NCBI GenBank assembly: GCA_000004985.1
Contig: GG738867.1
DNA length: 64,000 bases
Strand: one strand, 5' to 3'
Source of the DNA: Naegleria gruberi
Lineage: Eukaryota
The notes beneath the pieces were generated by a model. The model was given only the letters and a program-made list of their open reading frames with translations. It was not told the DNA's origin and made no database searches. The position numbers and the translations under genes were made by a program. Positions 7-58,153 of this stretch are shown here, in pieces. How positions within the stretch are numbered: position 1 is the first letter of the stretch; each line of letters begins with the position of its first letter.

Positions 7-336
7 ATGTACTACACTGTTGGTATTCAATTGTCTTCAGGAGTTTTGAATTCTACTTCAGTTTCTCAACCAATTAAGTTTGTTGAAAATTGTGATTCTG
101 CTAAGGTTGCCTGTTCACTTGATCTAACATTGCCCTGTGTACGTGAAAAACAGTGTGGAATGTACTATGACCAGTCAACAGAGAAGCAACAAGATGTAAA
201 AGTATTTATTTCTTGGACAGGAACTGATACCACTGGAACTCCATTAAGAAGTTATGGTTTATTGCCATCTAACTTCCGTTACCTTGCCTTTGAAAATTAC
301 TTTAACCAATTTGTTGGCCTTATCACTCCACAATAA
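7..336 (+). CDS. 3' end of a gene starting upstream of the window; hypothetical protein, C-terminal 109 aa
   Basis: Open frame from the window edge to TAA at 334-336. Codon usage matches neighbouring genes. No recognisable domain. Confidence 0.35.
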   Translation: MYYTVGIQLSSGVLNSTSVSQPIKFVENCDSAKVACSLDLTLPCVREKQCGMYYDQSTEKQQDVKVFISWTGTDTTGTPLRSYGLLPSNFRYLAFENYFNQFVGLITPQ

Positions 337-393
337 TTTTGTAACATCACACTATCGTTTTATTATTATAAACAACAACAAGAATATAAAAAT

Positions 394-750
394 ATGACAA
401 GATCATCATCTTGGTTTTCTTCCGAATCTTTCTTTTTAATATTGGGTGGTATTGCTTATTGGATTTTCTCAGTTTTCTTTTCTAATTATTCTAATCCTTC
501 TTCTTCTAGACCTTCACTAGATGCTAACAGTAGTAATGGTGATGGAACATTCTTTCAATTTTTAAAACAATTTGCTCAAAAGGGAGGAATCAAACACATG
601 TTTCCAGGAGATGATTCACGTGATTCTAGTATTCAATTTGAATTAATTTCACAAGTGCATTGTACTACTTCAGTTGGAAAACCCATCAGTGTCACGGTAA
701 GAAATACACCAACCGATAGAAGAAGAATGAGAATGTTCGGAGGCTTTTAA
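394..750 (+). CDS. hypothetical small membrane protein, 118 aa, one predicted TM near the N-terminus
   Basis: ATG in an A-rich context (aaaaatATG). Hydrophobic stretch FFLILGGIAYWIFSVFF. Ends in a basic RRRMRMFGGF tail. Single exon. Confidence 0.4.
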   Translation: MTRSSSWFSSESFFLILGGIAYWIFSVFFSNYSNPSSSRPSLDANSSNGDGTFFQFLKQFAQKGGIKHMFPGDDSRDSSIQFELISQVHCTTSVGKPISVTVRNTPTDRRRMRMFGGF

Positions 751-930
751 TTCATGATGATGATTTCTAGAAAGAAGGGAAATAGAATTACAATTCATAA
801 TATCATCAGACTAACATTGACAATTTAAGCTCATCCTATGTGTGTATTGGTTGGTTTGGTTTATTATGAATTGTATTAATCATCATCATTAATTTATTGG
901 AACAACATTTTAATTTCATAATTTAAAAAA

Positions 931-1677
931 ATGAGTTCGCGTATTGAATACATTTCACCTGAAGGATTGCGAGTTGATGGAAGACGTTCCCATGAAATTA
1001 GAAATATTAAATTTAAATTAAATTTATTTAGTAGAGCCGATGGATCAGCATATTATGAACAGGGCAATACACGTGTATTAGCTGCTGTTTATGGTCCGAG
1101 AGAAGTCAAAAATAAATCACAAATGAAGAATGATAGAGCAATTATTAATTGTGAATATAGTATGGCAACATTTAGTACAGGAGAAAGAAAGAGACAATTC
1201 AAAAAGGATAGAAGATCGACTGAAATTTCAGTTGTGATTAGACAAACATTTGAATCTGTAATTTTAACACATTTATATCCAAGAACACAAATTGATATTT
1301 TCATGCAAGTTCTTCAAGCTGATGGAGGTACTAGATGTGCTTGTATAAATGCTGCAACACTTGCCTTATTAGATGCAGGTATTCCAATGAAAGATTTTGT
1401 TGTTTCATGTGCTGCTGGATTTATTCAAGGTTCTCCATTAACAGATTTAAATTATATTGAAGATTGTGCTGGTGGTCCAGATGTACCAATTGCTCTTCTT
1501 CCAAAACATGATAAGGTCACTTTATTACAAATGGATTCGAAATTATCTTTGGATCAATTTGAAAAGGTTTTGGAACATGCAATAGAGGGTTGTAAACAAA
1601 TTCACAAAGTTATAGATGAACAATTGAAGAAACATACGTATGCACTGGTGAATAAAAGAGGTCTGTTTTCGGCCTAA
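931..1677 (+). CDS. exosome complex exonuclease Rrp41-like (RNase PH domain), 248 aa, single exon
   Basis: Translation shows the RNase PH/Rrp41 pattern: EGLRVDGRRSHEIRNI, GSAYYEQGNTRVLAAVYGPRE, and the C-terminal RNase PH region ADGGTRCACINAATLALLDAGIPMKD. Confidence 0.8.
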   Translation: MSSRIEYISPEGLRVDGRRSHEIRNIKFKLNLFSRADGSAYYEQGNTRVLAAVYGPREVKNKSQMKNDRAIINCEYSMATFSTGERKRQFKKDRRSTEISVVIRQTFESVILTHLYPRTQIDIFMQVLQADGGTRCACINAATLALLDAGIPMKDFVVSCAAGFIQGSPLTDLNYIEDCAGGPDVPIALLPKHDKVTLLQMDSKLSLDQFEKVLEHAIEGCKQIHKVIDEQLKKHTYALVNKRGLFSA

Positions 1678-1739
1678 TTATATTACATTGTAATATCCTT
1701 TATCTCTTTCTTTGTTATTGTTCTGAAGCCATGTAAAGG

Positions 1740-1777
1740 GTGAACTGATTTATATTTCAGAAATTAAGATAGTTGAT
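1740..1777 (+). promoter_or_regulatory. conserved 38-bp upstream element of 5S gene copy 1, with a TATA-like box (tttatattt) about 21-27 bp before the 5S 5' end
   Basis: The sequence gtgaactgatttatatttcagaaattaagatagttga is identical upstream of both 5S copies (1740-1777 and 2844-2881). Flanking sequence outside this element and the gene is unrelated. Confidence 0.6.
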
Positions 1778-1896
1778 GGCTACGGCCATATCACGATGAA
1801 TGCACCTCATCCCGTCCGATTTGAGAAGTTAAGCATCGTCGAGCCACATCAGTACTGAGGTTGGAGACAACTTGGGAACCTGTGGTGCTGTAGTCT
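1778..1896 (+). rRNA. 5S ribosomal RNA gene, copy 1
   Basis: GGCTACGGCCATATCACG...GGTTGGAGACAACTTGGGAACCTGTGGTGCTGTAGTCT aligns to eukaryotic 5S (GCCTACGGCCATACC...GGGAATACCGGGTGCTGTAGGC) and closely to Dictyostelium 5S (GGTTGGAGACAAC). Helix I pairs 5' GGCUACGGC with 3' GCUGUAGUC. Followed by T5. Confidence 0.9.
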
Positions 1897-1900
1897 TTTT
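1896..1900 (+). terminator. Pol III oligo-T terminator (TTTTT) after 5S copy 1
   Basis: T5 run immediately 3' of the 5S helix-I closing strand. Confidence 0.7.
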
Positions 1901-2022
1901 CTTGCAGATTTCACACTTTTGAACTTGGTTTTTCAACAATATTGGCTTGTTTTTATTGGTTTTCAATATTGATTCATTGAGATATTTCCACAACAAAACA
2001 AAATAACTAAATAACCAACACT

Positions 2023-2274
2023 ATGAGCAAAATGCCAGCTAGAAATACTTCATCAAATTCTTCTTACGAAGATAGAATTCCAACAAAAACGGTCTGGTCA
2101 AGATCTAAACCAATTATAGATGGAACTAGACATCGTAATAAAATTGATTATCATCTTGCAAATTTAAATGGTAAACAAATTTCAGTGAAAAGATCTTCGA
2201 AAAATTCAATTGAAAAGAGAGCTAAACAACAATCAACCACCACTAAGAAGATTACCAAATCGAAAAAGATGTAA
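2023..2274 (+). CDS. small lysine/serine-rich basic ORF (83 aa) between the two 5S genes; hypothetical
   Basis: ORF with an A-rich start context and basic composition (possible nucleolar or RNA-binding). No homology recognised. Confidence 0.25.
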   Translation: MSKMPARNTSSNSSYEDRIPTKTVWSRSKPIIDGTRHRNKIDYHLANLNGKQISVKRSSKNSIEKRAKQQSTTTKKITKSKKM

Positions 2275-2843
2275 ATTAACTTGTAACTAATTCAGTAAAT
2301 TGTAAATAACGTTTTGAAATAGATGAAGTTTCAATTTAGAATTGATCAGAATATGAGAAACCAAAATTTGCATCAAGCAATTCAACATGGCAACAGTTCA
2401 ATAAATACTAGGTTGATCAACCTTATCTATTTCTTCAAACAAAACCTGAACCAACAAGATTCTGTCTTCGTTGCCTTCACTGTTCATACAGTCAAAGACT
2501 GTAGCGGGATTGTCGCCATATTCCTGGCAGGCTTCCCGTCGTATCTAATTAATTGAAAATTTTTTTAATTGACATTGCTTCTAAGTAGCGATCTAGTAGA
2601 ATTCGACTCTAAGTTACACAACTTAAAGGCAGTTATAAATATGGTTACTAAAGTTCAAAGTGTTAGATCATTAAGTACTGGTTGGAAATAATGCTCCAAT
2701 TGTTAAAGTTATTGATAACTATAAGGATGAGCAAAATGGTTCTTTCATCCAATTTGATGGAACTCAATTGAAATGGTCATACATTTGCTATTTTACTGAG
2801 TTACGGATGTGGTTTGCCTTGTATTCAGTGGATTATATATAGA

Positions 2844-2881
2844 GTGAACTGATTTATATTTCAGAAATTAAGATAGTTGAT
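2844..2881 (+). promoter_or_regulatory. conserved 38-bp upstream element of 5S gene copy 2 (TATA-like box)
   Basis: Identical to 1740-1777. Confidence 0.6.
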
Positions 2882-3000
2882 GGCTACGGCCATATCACGA
2901 TGAATGCACCTCATCCCGTCCGATTTGAGAAGTTAAGCATCGTCGAGCCACATCAGTACTGAGGTTGGAGACAACTTGGGAACCTGTGGTGCTGTAGTCT
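2882..3000 (+). rRNA. 5S ribosomal RNA gene, copy 2
   Basis: Identical to copy 1 over the whole gene. Followed by TTTT (3000-3003). Spacing to copy 1 is 1104 bp. Confidence 0.9.
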
Positions 3001-3206
3001 TTTATCTTTTTGTCTTTTTGTGGAATAGAATGACCATTCAATTAGAAACAGTAAAAGTATGAAACAAATTTGTTGTTTTATTTCATATAAATAGGCTTCT
3101 CCCATATTTGTCAAGCTAATGAAATAATTTTCATAATATGGAATTATTGACACAACTTTTGAATAACATCTGTCAATTTTAATTTCAATTCCAGATCTTT
3201 CATCCT

Positions 3207-4091: not shown

Positions 4092-6835
4092 TGCAAACAA
4101 TTCAAAAGGCATTTAATATTGATCATTCTTTAAATTGGATCGGAAAGGAATTAAAAATATATGATCGTTCCAATGATAATGAAGATAAATCCTATGATGA
4201 ATGGTTATTAAATTATTCGGATACACTTGTTGCTGTTTCAAGGGATTGTAAATTAGTTGGAATTGGACATTATCGTCATTGTTATTTATGTATATATGAT
4301 AATTCTATAAATGAATTTGAATTAATTCAAGTAAATTCACCATGTAAATATGAAGGGTAAATATGAATATTATTATTTTAATATTTATTTGGATTAAGAG
4401 AGAAAATTACTTGTTTAATGTGGATTTCATTTAGTAATCAAAATTTTCTAATGATTGGATCTTCGGAAGGTTATTTGAGAATTTATGATGTTCAACAAGA
4501 TAAAATTATTCGTGAAGAGAGATTTCACGATTTGGAAATTGTTAAAATTCGATCACAAAGTGTTTTTCACAACACACTTCTTCCAAATTTTCAAAAAGAA
4601 ATTATTTTAATAATATATCCTAATCATGTCATCACTATTGATCCTCTCCATCTCAAAAAGGAATTAAATAGTGAAAATCCTTCCATGGATTTGGATGATT
4701 TAGAATACAAGAAATGGAATTTACAAGAATTTGCTAAACTTAATGATGCTTGTTGTTTATATTCTCATTGTTCTGATTCTTCAATTTTTGAAGTGATGGA
4801 AGAAAAGAGTGAATTTGATATTGTAGCGGTTGGTAAATCAACACTAGCTCTCTACTCAACAGCTAATGAAATTGTTGAATATGTGAGAAAGAGAACAAGA
4901 GTGAAGAAAATTGCAACACAAGTAGCAAGCAAAGTTTATTCTCTTGCATCCAATTACAGCTCATGGTTATGGGGAGGAAATAAGGAAGTTGAGCAACCGA
5001 GTGAACCTGAAGAACCAGAAATATTACCAGGTACACGTATTCCAATTTCCAATCGATTCATAGATGAAAAGAGAGAAATATTTCATGCTGATTTGGATTA
5101 TACAGGAAAATATTTGGCAACGAGTGATTCTTTGGGAAGAATTTTAATATTTGATTTATCAACCATGACTGTTATGAAAGTATTTAAAGGATACAGAGAA
5201 GCTCATTGTTATTGGTTTTTCACTGGATCAGAACCTGAAAATATGAATAGTGAATCAAATATTGAATTATTATTGATATTTGCACCTAGGAGAGGCATAT
5301 TGGAATGTTGGACCATTGATGGAAGGAGATTATATGCACTAACCGTTGGAACTGATAAGAGATTTATTAAGGCATCTGGAAATTTCATTGAAGGAAAAGA
5401 AACAACCTTTCATCCTTCACAATTTTATCTCATCTCACAAACAGATGGATCCATTCAACAAGTAGAATTTGACATTTCACTTGAAAAGATACAAAAAAGT
5501 GATTTTATTGATAATTCCTCTTCTTCAGGTTCTGCAAATCCATTCAAATTACTAATGGAAAATAAACTCAATTAATTCAACAATACAACAATACATTCAA
5601 CAGCTTCTATTAAATTATTGAACATTACAAATTACAAAAAAATGTGGTTACTCGTAGAAACACAACAATTCGTCATCAATAATAGTGAAGACATATCGGA
5701 ACCAACACCATCCGATTCTTCTTCTATTGCAATAATTCCATCAGCAACATCATCCAATATTACTAACACTAGTGGTGATGATAATAATCAGCAACAACAT
5801 CAAGAATCAATTACATCCTCCTCTTCATCCTCTTCATCATCAACAATAATTTTGAATAATTCATTTCTTCATGAAGCACCTTTGAATGTAAATTTAACTG
5901 AATTAAATTCAGCACTTTCAAGAATTGTTAAAGGAAGACATGTTTTATTTTCATGTTTTGAATATTTACTTTCTAATCAATTAATTAAAAAGGCTAAAGA
6001 TGAACAAGAATTAAAAGAAAAAGAATCAATTTTATATAATGAATTATTTCCAATATTTCAAAATTGTTGTGACAAATCATTTATAATAAGTCATAAAATT
6101 CCAATTACACCTCAAATAATTCATGAAGAAAAGACAAATTTAAAAAAGATTTGTGAAAAACATTTAAATTCAAATAATTTTATAACTTTATGTAAACTTA
6201 TTGATGCAATTGAAAAGAATACAGATTATATTCACTCAATAACATGTTTTAATGGTAAAAAGAGTCTTTCACATTCAGATTATAAAAAGTATGATGATTT
6301 GAGACGAGTATTTGCAACAGATAATGAAAAAACAAAAATTAACATCAAGATTGAAATTAAATTGAATACACCAGTTCATATTCATTTAACTAAATGTGAA
6401 TTTGCACCTCCCCTAATAGAAAACAAGAAGAGAAAGGCAAGACAATTAACAAATCTTGAAGAAGAAATGCTTTCCAATAATGATGAAAATGGATCTTTCT
6501 TTCATATTAAAAAGAAGAAGGTTGAAAAGTATGGTCCAAGAAGATTGAAAATTCCAGATGATCTCGCAATTAAAAAGGAACAATTGGAATATATTGGAGA
6601 ATCAAGCATGTTAAAAAATAGATTAAAGAATGAAAGATTACAGAAAATGCTTTTAGAAGTTGATGCTAATTATGATAGAGAACAAGTTTTGGATTTCTTT
6701 TTGGAAACTGAACCTGAATTTTTAATATTCTGTGAAGAGTTACTTTACATTATGGGAAGAAGAGATGATAATGATTTGAAACAAATTCATGAAGTTAATG
6801 CTAAATATGAACAAATGAAACAGAATAAACAATAA
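4092..6835 (+). CDS. RAB3GAP2-like (Rab3 GTPase-activating protein non-catalytic subunit) homolog, multi-exon
   Basis: Exon 1 is 4092-4356 (donor G|gtaaat). Exon 2 is 4435-5575 (acceptor tttcatttag|). Motifs match human RAB3GAP2: EGYLRIYD versus SGYVRFYT, GRILIFDLSTMTVMKVFKGYREA versus [23 protein letters not shown], and FAPRRGILECW versus YAPRRGILEVW. ORF 5618-6835 is in the same frame as exon 2, separated only by TAA at 5573-5575. It contains RHVLFSCFEYL, compare RLPFSCLRNI. The join may be a 75-nt intron 5529-5603, or the downstream ORF may be a separate gene. Confidence 0.55.
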
Positions 6836-8953: not shown

Positions 8954-10368
8954 ATGTACGAAAACAAGCTAAACAGTTACAATAACAAACAAGGTTCAAC
9001 GTTATATCTGGTTGGTGAATTAATGTCACTTTCACATGCTGTATTTCCAGGAGAGCACGTATTCAAAGTTTCTTCCACTTCAGTTTCAGAATTTGAACCT
9101 TTTAAAATTGATGATACTAATTCCGATCTTACAAAGATTGCTGATGCTATTTATCAAAAAGTGGTTCATTTACCAAATATCAATGTTGTAAAAGGTATGA
9201 AATTTGCGTTACTTGCGTTTGTTAAATTTAGTATTATAATAATAATAATATCTGTAAAAATGATGTTGAACAAAATCAATCGATTAACACTGTGATATTT
9301 AGTAATTTCTGGTCGTCATCACACTCATCTCATCACATTCGAAGGAAGAATTTTGAGTTTTGGAACAAATGGTAATGGTGAATTATGTTGTGGAGTATCT
9401 GGAGCATTAGGTGGTTCTCCAATTAGAGGTCTCATTAGAGCTGAAGGTTTGTTTTTAATGATTATAAGTTTGATTGTAAATTCATTTGTTAACAAATTAC
9501 AACAACAACAACAATATAGGTGTTATCAATGAATATAAAATAATTGACGGAGCTGGAGGTGGATATCACAGTATTTTCATTTCAATTGATGGTTCAGTAT
9601 TTGTAAATGGATCTAATTCAGCTAATCAATTGGGAATTTCAGATACTGAATCTCAAAAGAAACCAGTTAAACTTCCAAGTGATTATTTTGATGGTCAACC
9701 TATTTGTAAAGTAGGAGCTAACAATACTCATTCTGTATTTATTACAAGAAATTCTCAAGTTTATGTTGCAGGATCTGATTCTAATGGATGTTGTGCAGGT
9801 ATTAAAAGTAGTTCAGTACCTTTATTATTGAAATTTCCAATACAATTTACACCAATTGATGTCAGTTGTGGTTATGATGATACTAAATTTCTAACAAGTC
9901 AAGGTGTGTNNNNNNNNNNNNNNNNNNNNNNNNNNNNNNNNNNNNNNNNNNNNNNNNNNNNNNNNNNNNNNNNNTCATTCGAGGTTTTCAGATATTATTA
10001 AAATATCAAATGGATATTTCTGTCAATCATTTCAAACAAGTGATTTTTTGGTTCATGGAAGTTCAGTAATTGAAGATCAATTTCTTGAAAATTTTCATTC
10101 AGGTGATTATGACATTTATATTACAAAGGAATTTAATCCAAAAACTAAAGGATTTGGATTTATTAGAAAGTTGGATGGAACTGATTTGACTGGTGAATTT
10201 AACTTTAATGATTTGGTTGAACAAGTTGGAATTTCATCTCAAAGAAATCATTTTATTATTCATACTTATAGAGATGATTATAATCCAATTCATGAACATT
10301 TCATATTCTTTATTAAATTAATTGGAAATGACAGATTACCTTTAAATGATATTAAATTTATTTTTTAA
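8954..10368 (+). CDS. RCC1-repeat protein, multi-exon, interrupted by an assembly gap
   Basis: Exons are about 8954-9192, 9301-9444 and 9518-gap. RCC1-like repeats are GRILSFGTNGNGELCCGV, HSIFISIDGSVFVNGSNSANQLGI and HSVFITRNSQVYVAGSDSNGCCAGI. The C-terminal part continues after the gap to the stop at 10368. Confidence 0.5.
9910..9974. other. assembly gap (65 N)
   Basis: Run of n characters inside the RCC1-like gene. The X-containing ORFs in the six-frame track are artefacts of it. Confidence 0.99.
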
Positions 10369-54173: not shown

Positions 54174-54508
54174 AAAACAACGATTATTGCAATTTTAAGG
54201 ATCAAAGTAAATGAGGGATATTTGAATTTGTGTTTTAATGAATTTTACATATCAGGTCAGTGAAACAATTCTTTTCAATGGATTGAAAGAGAATTTGTCT
54301 TTTTTGAAAAAGTTGTTGAGATAATCTCTGAAAGTTTTTGTAATCTTGTGAGAACCAAGTCTTTTGTTCGAATGGAAGAGTTGACTTGAAACGAGAGAAT
54401 TGAGTACATAGTGATTTGACTGATAAATCCTGAGAATCTGTCACAATGAGAATAAACATTTGATGAATCATTGAATAATTTCTATTCTCTATAAATTCCA
54501 AGATGCTC

Positions 54509-54516
54509 ATCATTTC
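54509..54516. repeat. target-site duplication (left copy) ATCATTTC
   Basis: Identical 8-mer immediately outside both TIRs. Confidence 0.75.
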
Positions 54517-55373
54517 TAGACTAACGCTGAAGCAGTGAAAGTTGGCCCAAAAAATTTTTTGTCAAAAAAATGGCCAAGTCAAGAAAAATGGGCAAAAAAA
54601 TGCAAAGTCAGAGATTTCCCTCCTTGCAAAACAGCCCGCCAACACCGTTACGAATAAAATTTGAAATAAATAGAAATTTTTCACCTTTAAATAGTGGTTT
54701 TATTGAAGATTAAAGTAATGTTTCTACCAACAACCGTATCAGAGTACCTCGTAAGCTAGTGGACAAGGATGACAAGCAACCTAGAGTGCTCCAATTCGCA
54801 TAATTCCTCAGTTAACTGGTCAAAGAATAAGGTGTAACTTCTCCAAATTCGTTGGTGGTCAACAGCAAGGATTTGTCTACTTCCATCTATGATATTCTTG
54901 CTGAAGGAAGACAACCCTTAAAACCATTTCACATTCTTCATGTTAACAACACTATGGCTACTTGTTTTCCTGCGGCACTTGGCGATGTTCTTTACAGCAA
55001 TGGAATCCATCATACAACAATTACGAATTAATTAATGGTCCACGAGATGAGTATGAAGTTTTCGAAAAGACTTTCCTTAGAGGAGAGAGGCAGAGAAAGT
55101 ACATAACAAACTACCTCCACTGTGGTAGGAAGGCGAACGAGGTGTATAGGATTGACATCATCACAAGATATTTGTTTTTGACCAATGATATGGAAGATGA
55201 CTTGGTGCCTCTGGTGCTGACTACAGTTCCGATGATGGTGTGAGTAGTGATGATGAGTAATTAATTTTTTTTTATTAAATTTAAACATTAAGCGGGGGCG
55301 CGAGTTTTTGTAACTTTGCCATTTGTTTAAGGGTCGCGAGCGACACTTTTTACCAGGCTTCAGCGTTAGTCTA
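54517..55373. mobile_element. non-autonomous DNA transposon (MITE-like; hAT- or P-like by its 8-bp TSD) with 17-bp perfect TIRs and GC-rich subterminal repeats
   Basis: Left TIR TAGACTAACGCTGAAGC (54517-54533). Right TIR GCTTCAGCGTTAGTCTA (55357-55373) is its exact reverse complement. Flanked by direct repeats ATCATTTC at 54509-54516 and 55374-55381. Subterminal motifs: aaatggccaagtcaagaaaaa near the left end and tttttgtaactttgccattt near the right end, which are inverted copies. The interior is markedly less AT-rich, with CpG-containing tracts gggggcgcgag and ggtcgcgagcg. Only a 93-aa internal ORF, so no transposase. Confidence 0.8.
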
Positions 55374-55381
55374 ATCATTTC
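55374..55381. repeat. target-site duplication (right copy) ATCATTTC
   Basis: Identical 8-mer immediately outside both TIRs. Confidence 0.75.
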
Positions 55382-56269
55382 TCGATAGTGATCTTCTGAT
55401 ATCTTTTTAACTGGAAATTGCATTCCATTTTCATCCAATAAATGTTTGAATAGAGCAAATCTTGAAAGATGAATTAATTCTTCACATTTCTCTTGCAAAG
55501 AATGAATTTTGGATGATTTACAAGTTTCTTTGAGAAACATTTCAATAACAGACTTGCAAACTGAAATTCTGTTCGACTGTTTTGCAACAGAGAGACAGAT
55601 TCTTTTACAATTCATATAAAACCATTTCATTTTCATCAAATACGAATACAATTCCAGGATGGTCATTTCATTACACTGTAAATCATCTAAATCCAAAGTA
55701 AATTGATTAATATTTGGTGTTTTCTCTCCTAATTCCTTCAACAGCGAAATTTCATGTTGACCTCCACTCATTTCGTTTTGTAAAGCTATTTCATTAACTT
55801 GATTCATTGCTCTTGAGAAGACTGCAGACAAGAAGTTCTGCATCTCATTGAACGGTATCTTTGACATTATATTGAATGCAGAAGCATAAAAGAAAACCAT
55901 TGAAAATGATGATGAGGAACGAGAATGAATTTGTTGAGTGTCATCTTGAAGAGAGGAAAGAAAATCTTCTTTCCATTTTACTGAATCTTTCATTTGAATT
56001 AATAGAAGAAGTAAATATCTTTGGACTGAATTAATTTCAATATCTTTGAATGAGTTAATATCTCTTCCGATAGCAGTTGGGTGGTCATTGTCTGATGTTG
56101 AAGGATGGCTGTTGACATCTAGGTCTGTTAAACATAATTCTTCAGCCATTTTTTTAATGAAAACCAAAAAGGCAACCAACTGTAAGATGTATGATAGGAA
56201 GTTTTCAAATATTTTCTCACAGTTACCTTAAGATAAAAGTACTCTTTAGAAATTACATTAAAAAATAAT

Positions 56270-58153
56270 TTAATCTTGTGGAGCAACAAGTCCATTTTCC
56301 TTTGGTTTCAACAAGTATTCCAAAATTGAAGGGGTAATTTCTTCCAACAAGTCAAAGGCCTTTTGCTTATCCATGTCATTGGTTTCAACGTACCATTTAA
56401 GCTTTGGTTCAGTACCACTGTTTCTGATGGTTGCAGAAGTACCATTTTCAAAAGTGAAAGTAATCATTTGAGAAGTTGGAGTGGCAGGAAGAAGTGGCTT
56501 GTTATCCTTTTGGGCAGAATCATAGTCTTTAGTCAAATCTCTGAGAGAAGCAATCTTGAAGTGCTTTGAACTATCTCTAATACTTGGAATGAAGGTTGGA
56601 TATCCACCATTTTCAATCTTTCTGAGTTCTTCCATAACCTTGTGCAACAAGTCAGTGGATGGTGTGAAGAAGTAACGAGTCTTCATGGCAAAGAAACCAT
56701 ACTTCTTATAGATATTTTCAATTTGTTCACTCAAACGTTTAACAACACCTCCCTTGTAGTGACTGTGGGCCATTTCAGCAAAAACTGAAGCAGCTCTAAC
56801 ACCATCCTTATCCAAACTACAGTCACCAACCAAGAATCCAATTTCAACTTCATAACCTAACAAGAAAGTGTATCCATCCTTGATATATTGATCAGCTCTG
56901 TTACCAATCCATTTGAAACCAGTGAGAGTTTCATCAAACTTGAAACCTTCATGAGCAGCCATAGCTCTCAAAATCTTTGAACTGACGGTACTGGCAATCA
57001 TGACACACTTGGCGTAGTCTTCGTTTGGATGAGAAGTCTTATATTGAGTCCAAACCCAATCAGCCAACAACATGGCAATTTCGTTACCATTGAAAATTCT
57101 CCAAGATCCATCAACTTGTCTTTCAGCAACAGCCAATCTGTCAGCATCTGGATCGTTAGCCAAAATGAGAATAGCACCTTCCTTTTCACACTTGTCCATG
57201 GCAAGTTTGAGAGCACCTTTACCTTCCTCAGGATTTGGATATTTTACAGTGGTAAATTCTGGATCAGCTTCAATTTGCTCTTCAACAGGAATGCATTTTG
57301 GTAAACCATACAAATCAATAGCTCTATATGTGAAAGGAGTACCAACACCATGCATAGCAGTATATACAATTTTCTCATCGGAAATAACTGGCTTACCATT
57401 GCTGTAATTATATTTACGAATGGCTTCAAAATATTCATCAGCTTGAGTTTTGGTTGGATCTTGCAACAAGTGAGACCATGGAGACAAATCAATAACTTGT
57501 TCTTCATCACCTCCATTTCCGTCTGTCTTTAATTGTTTTCTAACTTCTTCCCAAATTGATAAATTTTGCATGATAGCAGCAGAAATGTATTCATCTTGTG
57601 GAGGAATAATTTGACAACCATTTTCCCAATATAATTTATAACCATTATCTTGCTTTGGGTTGTGTGATGCAGTAACCATGACACCAGCAATGCATCTCTC
57701 TCCACTATTACTTCTATTAATATTACTGACAGCAAAAGGAACAAATGGTGTGCATACCATTGTTCTAAACAAATGTACAGTGTATCCCTTGGAGAGGAAA
57801 ACACCAGCAGTCAAGTTTGCATATTGTTTAGAATGATGTCTGCCATCATATCCGACAACTACAGAAACTTTGCTCCTATCACTAACATCTTTTGTACATT
57901 CTTCAATGTATTTACAAACTCCTTGAGATGTTTGCAAAATAATCAATTCATTCATGCATGAAAATCCAGCAGCCATCAAACTTCTCAAGCCAGCTGTACC
58001 AAATTCAATACGCTTACATAATCTCTTTTCCAATTCAGCTACATTTCCCTGTTGGACAAGGTTTTGAATATCCTTTCTAGTCACTTCAAAAGGATCAAGC
58101 TCCAACCATTGATCGACGAGTTGTTGAATATGTTGAGGAATTGTTTGGGACAT
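56270..58153 (-). CDS. phosphoglucomutase-2-like alpha-D-phosphohexomutase (PGM2/phosphopentomutase family), 627 aa, single exon
   Basis: Active-site serine loop TASHNPKQDNGYKLYWENG. Also GTAGLRSLMAAGFSCMNELIILQTSQG, the metal-binding loop NDPDADRLAVAE, and sugar-binding GYEVEIGF. Confidence 0.85.
   Translation of the reverse strand: MSQTIPQHIQQLVDQWLELDPFEVTRKDIQNLVQQGNVAELEKRLCKRIEFGTAGLRSLMAAGFSCMNELIILQTSQGVCKYIEECTKDVSDRSKVSVVVGYDGRHHSKQYANLTAGVFLSKGYTVHLFRTMVCTPFVPFAVSNINRSNSGERCIAGVMVTASHNPKQDNGYKLYWENGCQIIPPQDEYISAAIMQNLSIWEEVRKQLKTDGNGGDEEQVIDLSPWSHLLQDPTKTQADEYFEAIRKYNYSNGKPVISDEKIVYTAMHGVGTPFTYRAIDLYGLPKCIPVEEQIEADPEFTTVKYPNPEEGKGALKLAMDKCEKEGAILILANDPDADRLAVAERQVDGSWRIFNGNEIAMLLADWVWTQYKTSHPNEDYAKCVMIASTVSSKILRAMAAHEGFKFDETLTGFKWIGNRADQYIKDGYTFLLGYEVEIGFLVGDCSLDKDGVRAASVFAEMAHSHYKGGVVKRLSEQIENIYKKYGFFAMKTRYFFTPSTDLLHKVMEELRKIENGGYPTFIPSIRDSSKHFKIASLRDLTKDYDSAQKDNKPLLPATPTSQMITFTFENGTSATIRNSGTEPKLKWYVETNDMDKQKAFDLLEEITPSILEYLLKPKENGLVAPQD

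Follow-up and report, generated by a model that had tools for sequence, protein, structure and literature searches.

A probable non-autonomous DNA transposon inside an unannotated open reading frame of Naegleria gruberi

An 857-bp element lies within a minus-strand open reading frame (ORF) on contig GG738867.1 of Naegleria gruberi, in a stretch of 64,000 nucleotides that is called the window throughout. The element occupies positions 54517-55373, counted between and including two terminal inverted repeats (TIRs) of 17 bp, and is bracketed by two copies of an 8-mer, ATCATTTC, which form a target-site duplication (TSD). Its interior contains pieces of a gene resembling that for the N. gruberi protein EFC35415 (P0006 below), and its left end aligns with that of a complete, TIR-bounded relative on a metagenome contig (L003). 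The coordinates of the TIRs and of the flanking 8-mers given in a first-pass annotation of this DNA were exactly borne out by direct reading of the sequence. The locus is laid out as follows.

54235-54508, minus strand: 3' part of the host ORF (...SILEF...CKIH, stop), from the ORF list, the reconstruction and codon usage (+0.24 bits per codon)
54509-54516, no strand: left TSD ATCATTTC, 8 bp, identical to 55374-55381
54517-54533, plus strand: left TIR TAGACTAACGCTGAAGC, 17 bp, perfect, with a TAGA terminus in common with the L003 relative
54534-54665, plus strand: 5' subterminal region with the direct repeats AAATGGCCAAGTCAAG, AAATGGGCA and GCAAAGTCAGAG and the motif CCGTTAC (54645-54651)
54666-55004, plus strand: decayed N-terminal remnant of a P0006-like putative transposase (tblastn), with a stop, frameshifts and internal deletions
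55005-55260, plus strand: putative C-terminal remnant (translation), with the acidic tail LGASGADYSSDDGVSSDDE and the stop TAA at 55258-55260
55261-55356, plus strand: 3' subterminal region with an A/T run, the CpG-rich GCGGGGGCGCGAG, GGGTCGCGAGCGAC and an inverted AAATGGCAAAGT motif (55305-55328)
55357-55373, minus strand: right TIR, the exact reverse complement of the left TIR TAGACTAACGCTGAAGC
55374-55381, no strand: right TSD ATCATTTC, 8 bp
55382-56149, minus strand: 5' part of the host ORF (MAEEL...HYRE), from the ORF list, the reconstruction and codon usage (+0.27 bits per codon)

With up to 3 mismatches allowed, the TIR 17-mer TAGACTAACGCTGAAGC matched the window at these two positions only; the chance expectation was 0.05. 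Perfect inverted repeats of at least 12 nt with arms within 6 kb number 121 in the window, and a flanking direct repeat of more than 4 bp was found beside one of them, the pair 54517-54533/55357-55373. No TSD of 8 bp or more appeared beside inverted repeats in 50 shuffles. As the first-pass annotation had claimed, the element is richer than its host in G+C (38.5% versus 31.8% for the window) and in CpG (observed/expected ratio 0.73 versus 0.41). The subterminal inverted repeats that it had described are present as well, but the inverted AAATGGCAAAGT copy at 55305-55328 is merely 79% complementary, across 24 nt, to its counterpart at 54564-54587. Codon-usage scores were negative in all six frames of the element, and Rfam and tRNA searches in and around it gave no match.

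Excising 54517-55381, that is the element plus one 8-mer, joined ...HYREM to MSILEF... in frame on the minus strand. The restored ORF comprises 349 residues from the likely ATG at 56149 and ends at a stop at 54235-54237; measured from stop to stop it has 360 codons, starting with the TTG at 56179. Both the in-frame fusion and the clean 360-codon ORF expected at first pass were thereby reproduced. Codon usage, scored after training on four neighbouring genes, was gene-like for N. gruberi in both halves of the ORF and in that frame alone (the other frames were negative), with scores in the same range as those of other ORFs in the window. A phosphoglucomutase-family protein (XP_002677395) is encoded at 56270-58153; the host ORF lies about 120 bp downstream of its gene, and the next minus-strand ORF lies about 60 bp downstream of the host ORF; such spacing is usual in compact genomes. 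The products of four neighbouring ORFs match annotated N. gruberi proteins exactly, among them XP_002677395, whose scaffold is 424 kb long. The window thus belongs to N. gruberi (strain NEG-M), and a comparison with dictyostelid repeats (DDT, Tdd, thug), which had been proposed, is irrelevant.

The host ORF had no homologue among 5.8 billion proteins, a search in which it evidently had no N. gruberi gene model either. No Pfam domain was found in it, and blastn and tblastx of the 64-kb window revealed no paralogue. The description of the site as a coding exon, made before these searches, goes too far: an open reading frame with gene-like codon usage is there, but it has no gene model or homologue, and 'unannotated orphan ORF' is the better name for it. 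The analysis flags an unannotated gene of 349 codons, probably an orphan that gene prediction overlooked because of the insertion. The insertion point follows codon 258 of the 349. Beyond the insertion point the host frame continues without a stop for 115 codons of the element, on the strand opposite to the transposase remnants, until the stop at 55028-55030. The predicted product is now a 373-residue chimera of 258 host and 115 element-derived residues, from which the last 91 host residues are missing. The 383-residue ORF at 55028-56179 (minus strand) in the mechanical ORF list is this host frame running into the element.

The interior of the element had been reported to hold no transposase. 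It has no intact ORF, yet both phmmer and tblastn detected decayed fragments of a P0006-like gene. A query made from the open stretches of the element found a sole protein, N. gruberi EFC35415 (P0006, XP_002668159; phmmer E = 3.6e-6), which has 681 residues, is annotated as 'partial' and lies on a 2.5-kb N. gruberi scaffold. With P0006 as the query, tblastn returned three collinear plus-strand blocks in the element, all on the N-terminal 200 residues of the protein. The first, 54696-54779, corresponds to residues 17-44 (75% identity, one in-frame stop); the second, 54836-54868, to residues 112-122; and the third, 54864-55004, to residues 121-197 (44% identity with a 30-residue gap, about 80% in the ungapped parts). 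The ATA at 54666 could be a mutated start codon. Two related environmental proteins, P0007 and P0008 (the latter being the product of the L003 gene), gave no tblastn match to the element, so its parent would be a P0006-like element of the same genome. By eye, the acidic Ser/Asp-rich tail of the element resembles the tails of P0007 and of the L003 gene, a likeness that is statistically not significant; judging from it, the element has probably retained the acidic 3' tail of the transposase gene. The repeats of the 5' subterminal region probably correspond to transposase-binding and promoter sequences.

These coding remnants bear on the name of the element. The label MITE (a miniature transposable element with inverted repeats), applied at first pass, fits a non-autonomous TIR element, but the coding remnants and the length of 857 bp, compared with the usual limit of about 800 bp, speak against it. 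MITEs in the strict sense also reach high copy numbers. The element is better described as an internally deleted, Ds-like non-autonomous derivative than as a classic, coding-free MITE.

A complete relative of 2.75 kb is carried by L003, a metagenome contig of 33% G+C. Its TIR, CTAGATCGCGGGAAGT at 264-279, is complementary at 15 of 16 positions to the copy at 2996-3011, and the two TIRs (264-3011) enclose a single gene, that of P0008. The left end contains, on its inner side, three copies of GCAAGTCGAG, and the right end GCAAAGTCGA. Over its leftmost 210 bp the N. gruberi element is 76% identical to the left end of the L003 element, and the alignment takes in the TAGA terminus, the AAGTC(A/G)AG repeats and the CCGTTAC motif upstream of the gene. 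This alignment ties the termini of the N. gruberi element to the P0006/P0008 protein family. The right end of L003 was also aligned with the 3' subterminal region.

CCGTTAC, or its complement GTAACGG, stands just upstream of the transposase-like gene at 54645-54651 in the window, at 411-417 in L003, and at 361-367 and 391-397 in L001, the contig that encodes P0007; it may be a candidate promoter or protein-binding site of the element family. The P0007 gene itself is intact (881 residues, L001 452-3097) and sits between a carboxyl-transferase fragment and a BTB/pentapeptide gene that is 20 bp away. The same context was found in a second contig, L002, and hence in two independent metagenomes. 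P0007 may be an immobilised or domesticated copy.

The protein family is sparse. With P0006 as the query, an exhaustive phmmer search covering 1.84 billion cluster representatives returned 14 proteins, 3 of them strong. P0007 (881 residues, E = 8.5e-88) comes from environmental assemblies and P0008 (704 residues, E = 2.6e-75) from one environmental assembly. The third strong match, P0009 (EFC35548, XP_002668292, 358 residues), is encoded by N. gruberi on a 5.7-kb scaffold. A word-indexed homologue search returned P0006 alone; the tiny scaffolds of P0006 (2.5 kb) and P0009 (5.7 kb) are as expected of repeats. P0006 and P0009 are merely about 29% identical, and N. gruberi thus harbours at least two old lineages of the element family.

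The weaker phmmer matches share an N-terminal helical module and include P0019 (E = 1e-3), a protein that carries the domain DUF6589 (PF20231, E = 3.8e-49) and whose contig, L027, ends 34 bp upstream of the gene. Alignment of the family profile with P0019 by hhalign gave a probability of 92.7% (E = 4e-7) over 467 columns and brought four motifs into register: (Y/W)DNxE, GDQ, PG(D/L)(W/F)H and DE(F/D)xE. The acidic positions were invariant wherever they were covered, the D of (Y/W)DNxE in 10 of 10 sequences, the D of GDQ in 4 of 4 and the DE of DExxE in 5 of 5. The likeness to DUF6589 comprises the helical module (LG..L...G......L...G.T.SY.T) and the motifs DNxE, GDQ, PGxxH and DExxE; in contrast to DUF6589 proteins, the Naegleria-type proteins fall below the Pfam threshold. 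No DUF6589 gene was seen between TIRs, the one contig inspected, L027, being cut off just ahead of the gene. The P0006 family would accordingly be placed as a distant relative of DUF6589, and not as a member by the curated cut-off.

To place the family among known transposases, we scanned P0006, P0007, P0008 and P0009 against Pfam with hmmscan at E <= 10, taking the marker models for transposon superfamilies from a published list (PMC5751038). None of the four proteins matched the hAT models Dimer_Tnp_hAT (PF05699), DUF659, DUF4371 and DUF4413, and the P0006-family proteins matched neither Tnp_P_element (PF12017/PF12596) nor THAP. They gave no match to MULE (PF10551), Transposase_mut (PF00872) or DDE_Tnp_IS1595 (PF12762) either, which are the markers of MULE and Merlin elements. 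KDZ (PF18758) and CxC were without a match in P0006, P0007, P0008 and P0019. From the motifs we infer that P0006, P0007, P0008 and P0009 form a putative DDE-type transposase family, with candidate D, D and E residues in (Y/W)DNxE, GDQ and DE(F/D)xE; this candidate triad would include a helical insertion of about 215 residues ahead of the E.

We consider it about 80% probable that 54517-55373 is a non-autonomous class II TIR transposon that arose by internal deletion from a P0006-type autonomous element and was mobilised in trans. The marks of class II that we observed are a TIR that is perfect at 17 of 17 positions, a TSD that is identical at 8 of 8 positions and whose target is restored by excision, and a related single-gene element between similar termini. 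In the sequence of events that we propose, internal deletion and decay would have removed most of the gene from an autonomous P0006-type element of about 2.7-3 kb. What survived would be the two termini, the subterminal repeats, pieces from the 5' part of the transposase gene and, probably, the acidic tail at its 3' end. The defective lineage could still have been mobilised in trans by an intact EFC35415/P0006-type protein of the same genome, which would recognise the 17-bp TIRs and the AAGTC(A/G)AG subterminal repeats. The target would have been cut with an 8-bp stagger and repair would have duplicated ATCATTTC, one copy of the element landing in the host ORF.

Neither the TIRs nor the TSD contain a mismatch, and no stop or frameshift has entered the flanking ORF; the insertion is therefore probably recent, as had been thought from its appearance. 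It may instead be heterozygous or tolerated.

Several results weigh against this interpretation. One copy of the element was seen in the 64-kb window, and the mobility of the family therefore rests on a single TSD. Neither blastn nor tblastx found a second copy in the window, and a family-alignment search of metagenome and viral collections for related loci found nothing. Scans for the exact TIR 17-mer hit 10 loci in metagenome, 10 in viral and 3 in GTDB collections; every locus had a single match, which extended to no more than 19-29 nt, and these matches are chance. The L003 element lacks a clean TSD (TAAAAAAC versus TAAAATCA, 5/8), and joining its flanks restores no ORF. Its gene switches frame near 2570-2590, before the conserved acidic tail (2560-2900), a switch due to a frameshift mutation or else to a short intron. 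P0007 lies between host genes on L001 and has no detectable TIRs. At the protein level, hmmscan gave no match to DUF6589 at the Pfam threshold for P0006, P0007 or P0008, and searches of PDB sequences with the family proteins gave no match. AlphaFold2 models were poor, with a predicted local distance difference test score (pLDDT) of 42.7 from an alignment of 4 sequences and 51.3 from one of 14, and left the catalytic core unmodelled. A Foldseek search of PDB with the poor model was uninformative (best E = 0.7), and no RNase H fold was demonstrated. Finally, the host ORF has neither homologue nor gene model, which makes the biological weight of its disruption uncertain.

That last point raises the question of whether the host 'gene' is functional at all, or whether an orphan ORF in decay, or a piece of some other repeat, received a neutral insertion in dispensable DNA. 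The failure to find a homologue, a gene model or a Pfam domain is as this would predict. However, an open frame of 349 codons in DNA of 31% G+C is very unlikely by chance, the codon usage of both halves matches that of bona fide neighbouring genes, the ORF fits tightly between two genes of the same strand, and the window holds no further copy of it; we regard a dispensable host as unlikely. A functional host gene could also be reconciled with the insertion if the element were in effect an intron, most of it being spliced out at cryptic sites close to its ends so that the gene stays in use. On either side of the element the flanking ORF remains intact, and on the minus strand a donor CTG|GTAAAAAG (55353) and an acceptor TCTAG| (54516) would give an in-frame product of 358 residues, that is the original plus 9. 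However, 18 different GT..AG pairs near the element ends yield stop-free in-frame products, so the 55353/54516 coincidence is not special and splicing is merely possible. The exact boundaries of the element are moreover TA..TA and not GT..AG, and we think it very unlikely that the element serves in this way. Practically no weight can be given to an ordinary spliceosomal intron or a chance inverted repeat, for which nothing speaks except the position within an ORF. The perfect TIR and TSD, a configuration that occurred in none of 50 shuffles, the boundaries other than GT..AG, and the homology of the interior to a transposon-type gene and of the ends to a TIR-bounded element all argue the other way. 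A spliced intron, which the first-pass annotation had itself named as a competing account, is effectively refuted by the TIR and TSD, the non-GT..AG boundaries and the homologous interior.

A different objection concerns the superfamily, since the element could be a MITE of the hAT superfamily or a P-like one, mobilised by a canonical transposase of hAT or P type that is encoded at another locus of the genome, the likeness to P0006 being due to incidentally captured sequence. The 8-bp TSD, short TIRs, TAG terminus and short subterminal repeats are the usual anatomy of hAT elements. Termini of hAT elements follow the consensus 5'-YARNG, which TAGAC matches at 4 of 5 positions. Their targets follow nTnnnnAn, and here the fit is only half, position 2 of ATCATTTC being T but position 7 not A. 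An 8-bp TSD is what hAT elements normally make (PMC12730594). Against a captured sequence, the order of P0006-like remnants and termini is collinear and matches the arrangement of the L003 element, whose sole gene between TAGA TIRs is of the P0006 family; and the family lacks Dimer_Tnp_hAT, DUF659, DUF4371, DUF4413, Tnp_P_element and THAP even at the permissive threshold. The 8-bp TSD and short TIRs cited at first pass as a hAT/P-like signature are real, but the relatives carry no hAT or P model. Because the full-length relatives match none, the hAT/P label describes the anatomy of the DNA alone, and we judge this origin distinctly unlikely.

We still favour a P0006-type transposon, and its resemblance to known systems is partial in each case. 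With Ac/Ds and other hAT elements it shares short TIRs (17 bp here), an 8-bp TSD and clustered short subterminal repeats. An autonomous single-gene form of about 2.7-4.5 kb is likewise common to both, and as with Ac/Ds the non-autonomous copy would arise by an internal deletion that keeps the 5' and 3' ends of the gene. Insertion into coding sequence is a further shared feature. Unlike hAT transposases, P0006, P0007 and P0008 have no BED finger, hAT dimerisation domain or other hAT Pfam domain, and the element ends in TAGAC rather than YARNG. The P and Novosib superfamilies also make 8-bp TSDs. For P the TSD of the element is compatible, but P transposase domains are absent from the P0006-family proteins. 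The likeness to Novosib is by description only and consists of the 8-bp TSD, a small single-gene element and occurrence in protists. Even the transposase domain of Novosib is itself regarded as uncertain (PMC5751038). Zisupton/Dileera (KDZ) elements have TIRs and 8-bp TSDs (PMC12730594, PMC11343200), and the KDZ range of 7-8 bp is compatible with the TSD length found here (PMC12730594). KDZ transposases are large, poorly conserved and RNase H-like. In contrast, no PF18758, CxC or SWIM domain was found in P0006, P0007, P0008 or P0019, and KDZ elements are 6-11 kb long with several genes.

No function has been published for DUF6589; the only mention that we found in the literature names it beside Tet-like oxygenases in a list of domains that show enrichment in rust fungi (bioRxiv 10.1101/2025.10.24.684071). 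The link to P0006 suggests a function for this domain, and an overlooked transposase lineage that makes 8-bp duplications may be at hand. We offer as a tentative idea, more doubtful than probable, that P0006, P0007, P0008 and the fungal DUF6589 proteins make up a new superfamily of cut-and-paste transposases, characterised by TAGA termini, AAGTC-type repeats and 8-bp TSDs. If this were true, the N. gruberi insertion would be the first direct evidence of such elements transposing, and DUF6589 would gain a function.

The event itself is a textbook case, in which a defective DNA transposon disrupts an ORF in a compact protist genome. The genome of N. gruberi consists of about 5% repeats (PMC6125883), and our literature search found no account of MITEs or hAT elements in Naegleria. 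The insertion points to probable recent activity of cut-and-paste transposition in Heterolobosea, a group whose mobile elements have received little study. The putative transposase of the parent belongs to a very sparse family that has no annotated domain and is linked to DUF6589. The insertion also gives a clean marker with which N. gruberi alleles or strains can be told apart.

Two further features of the window are recorded here. A run of 65 N at 9910-9974 marks an assembly gap. A second perfect 17-nt inverted repeat, TAATTCTTGTTCATCTT (3813-3829/5997-6013), has arms 2.2 kb apart and no flanking direct repeat, and spans the ORFs 4418-5575 and 5618-6835. Repeats of this kind, 17 nt or longer, number about 0.1 per shuffled window, so the TAATTCTTGTTCATCTT pair is mildly unexpected.

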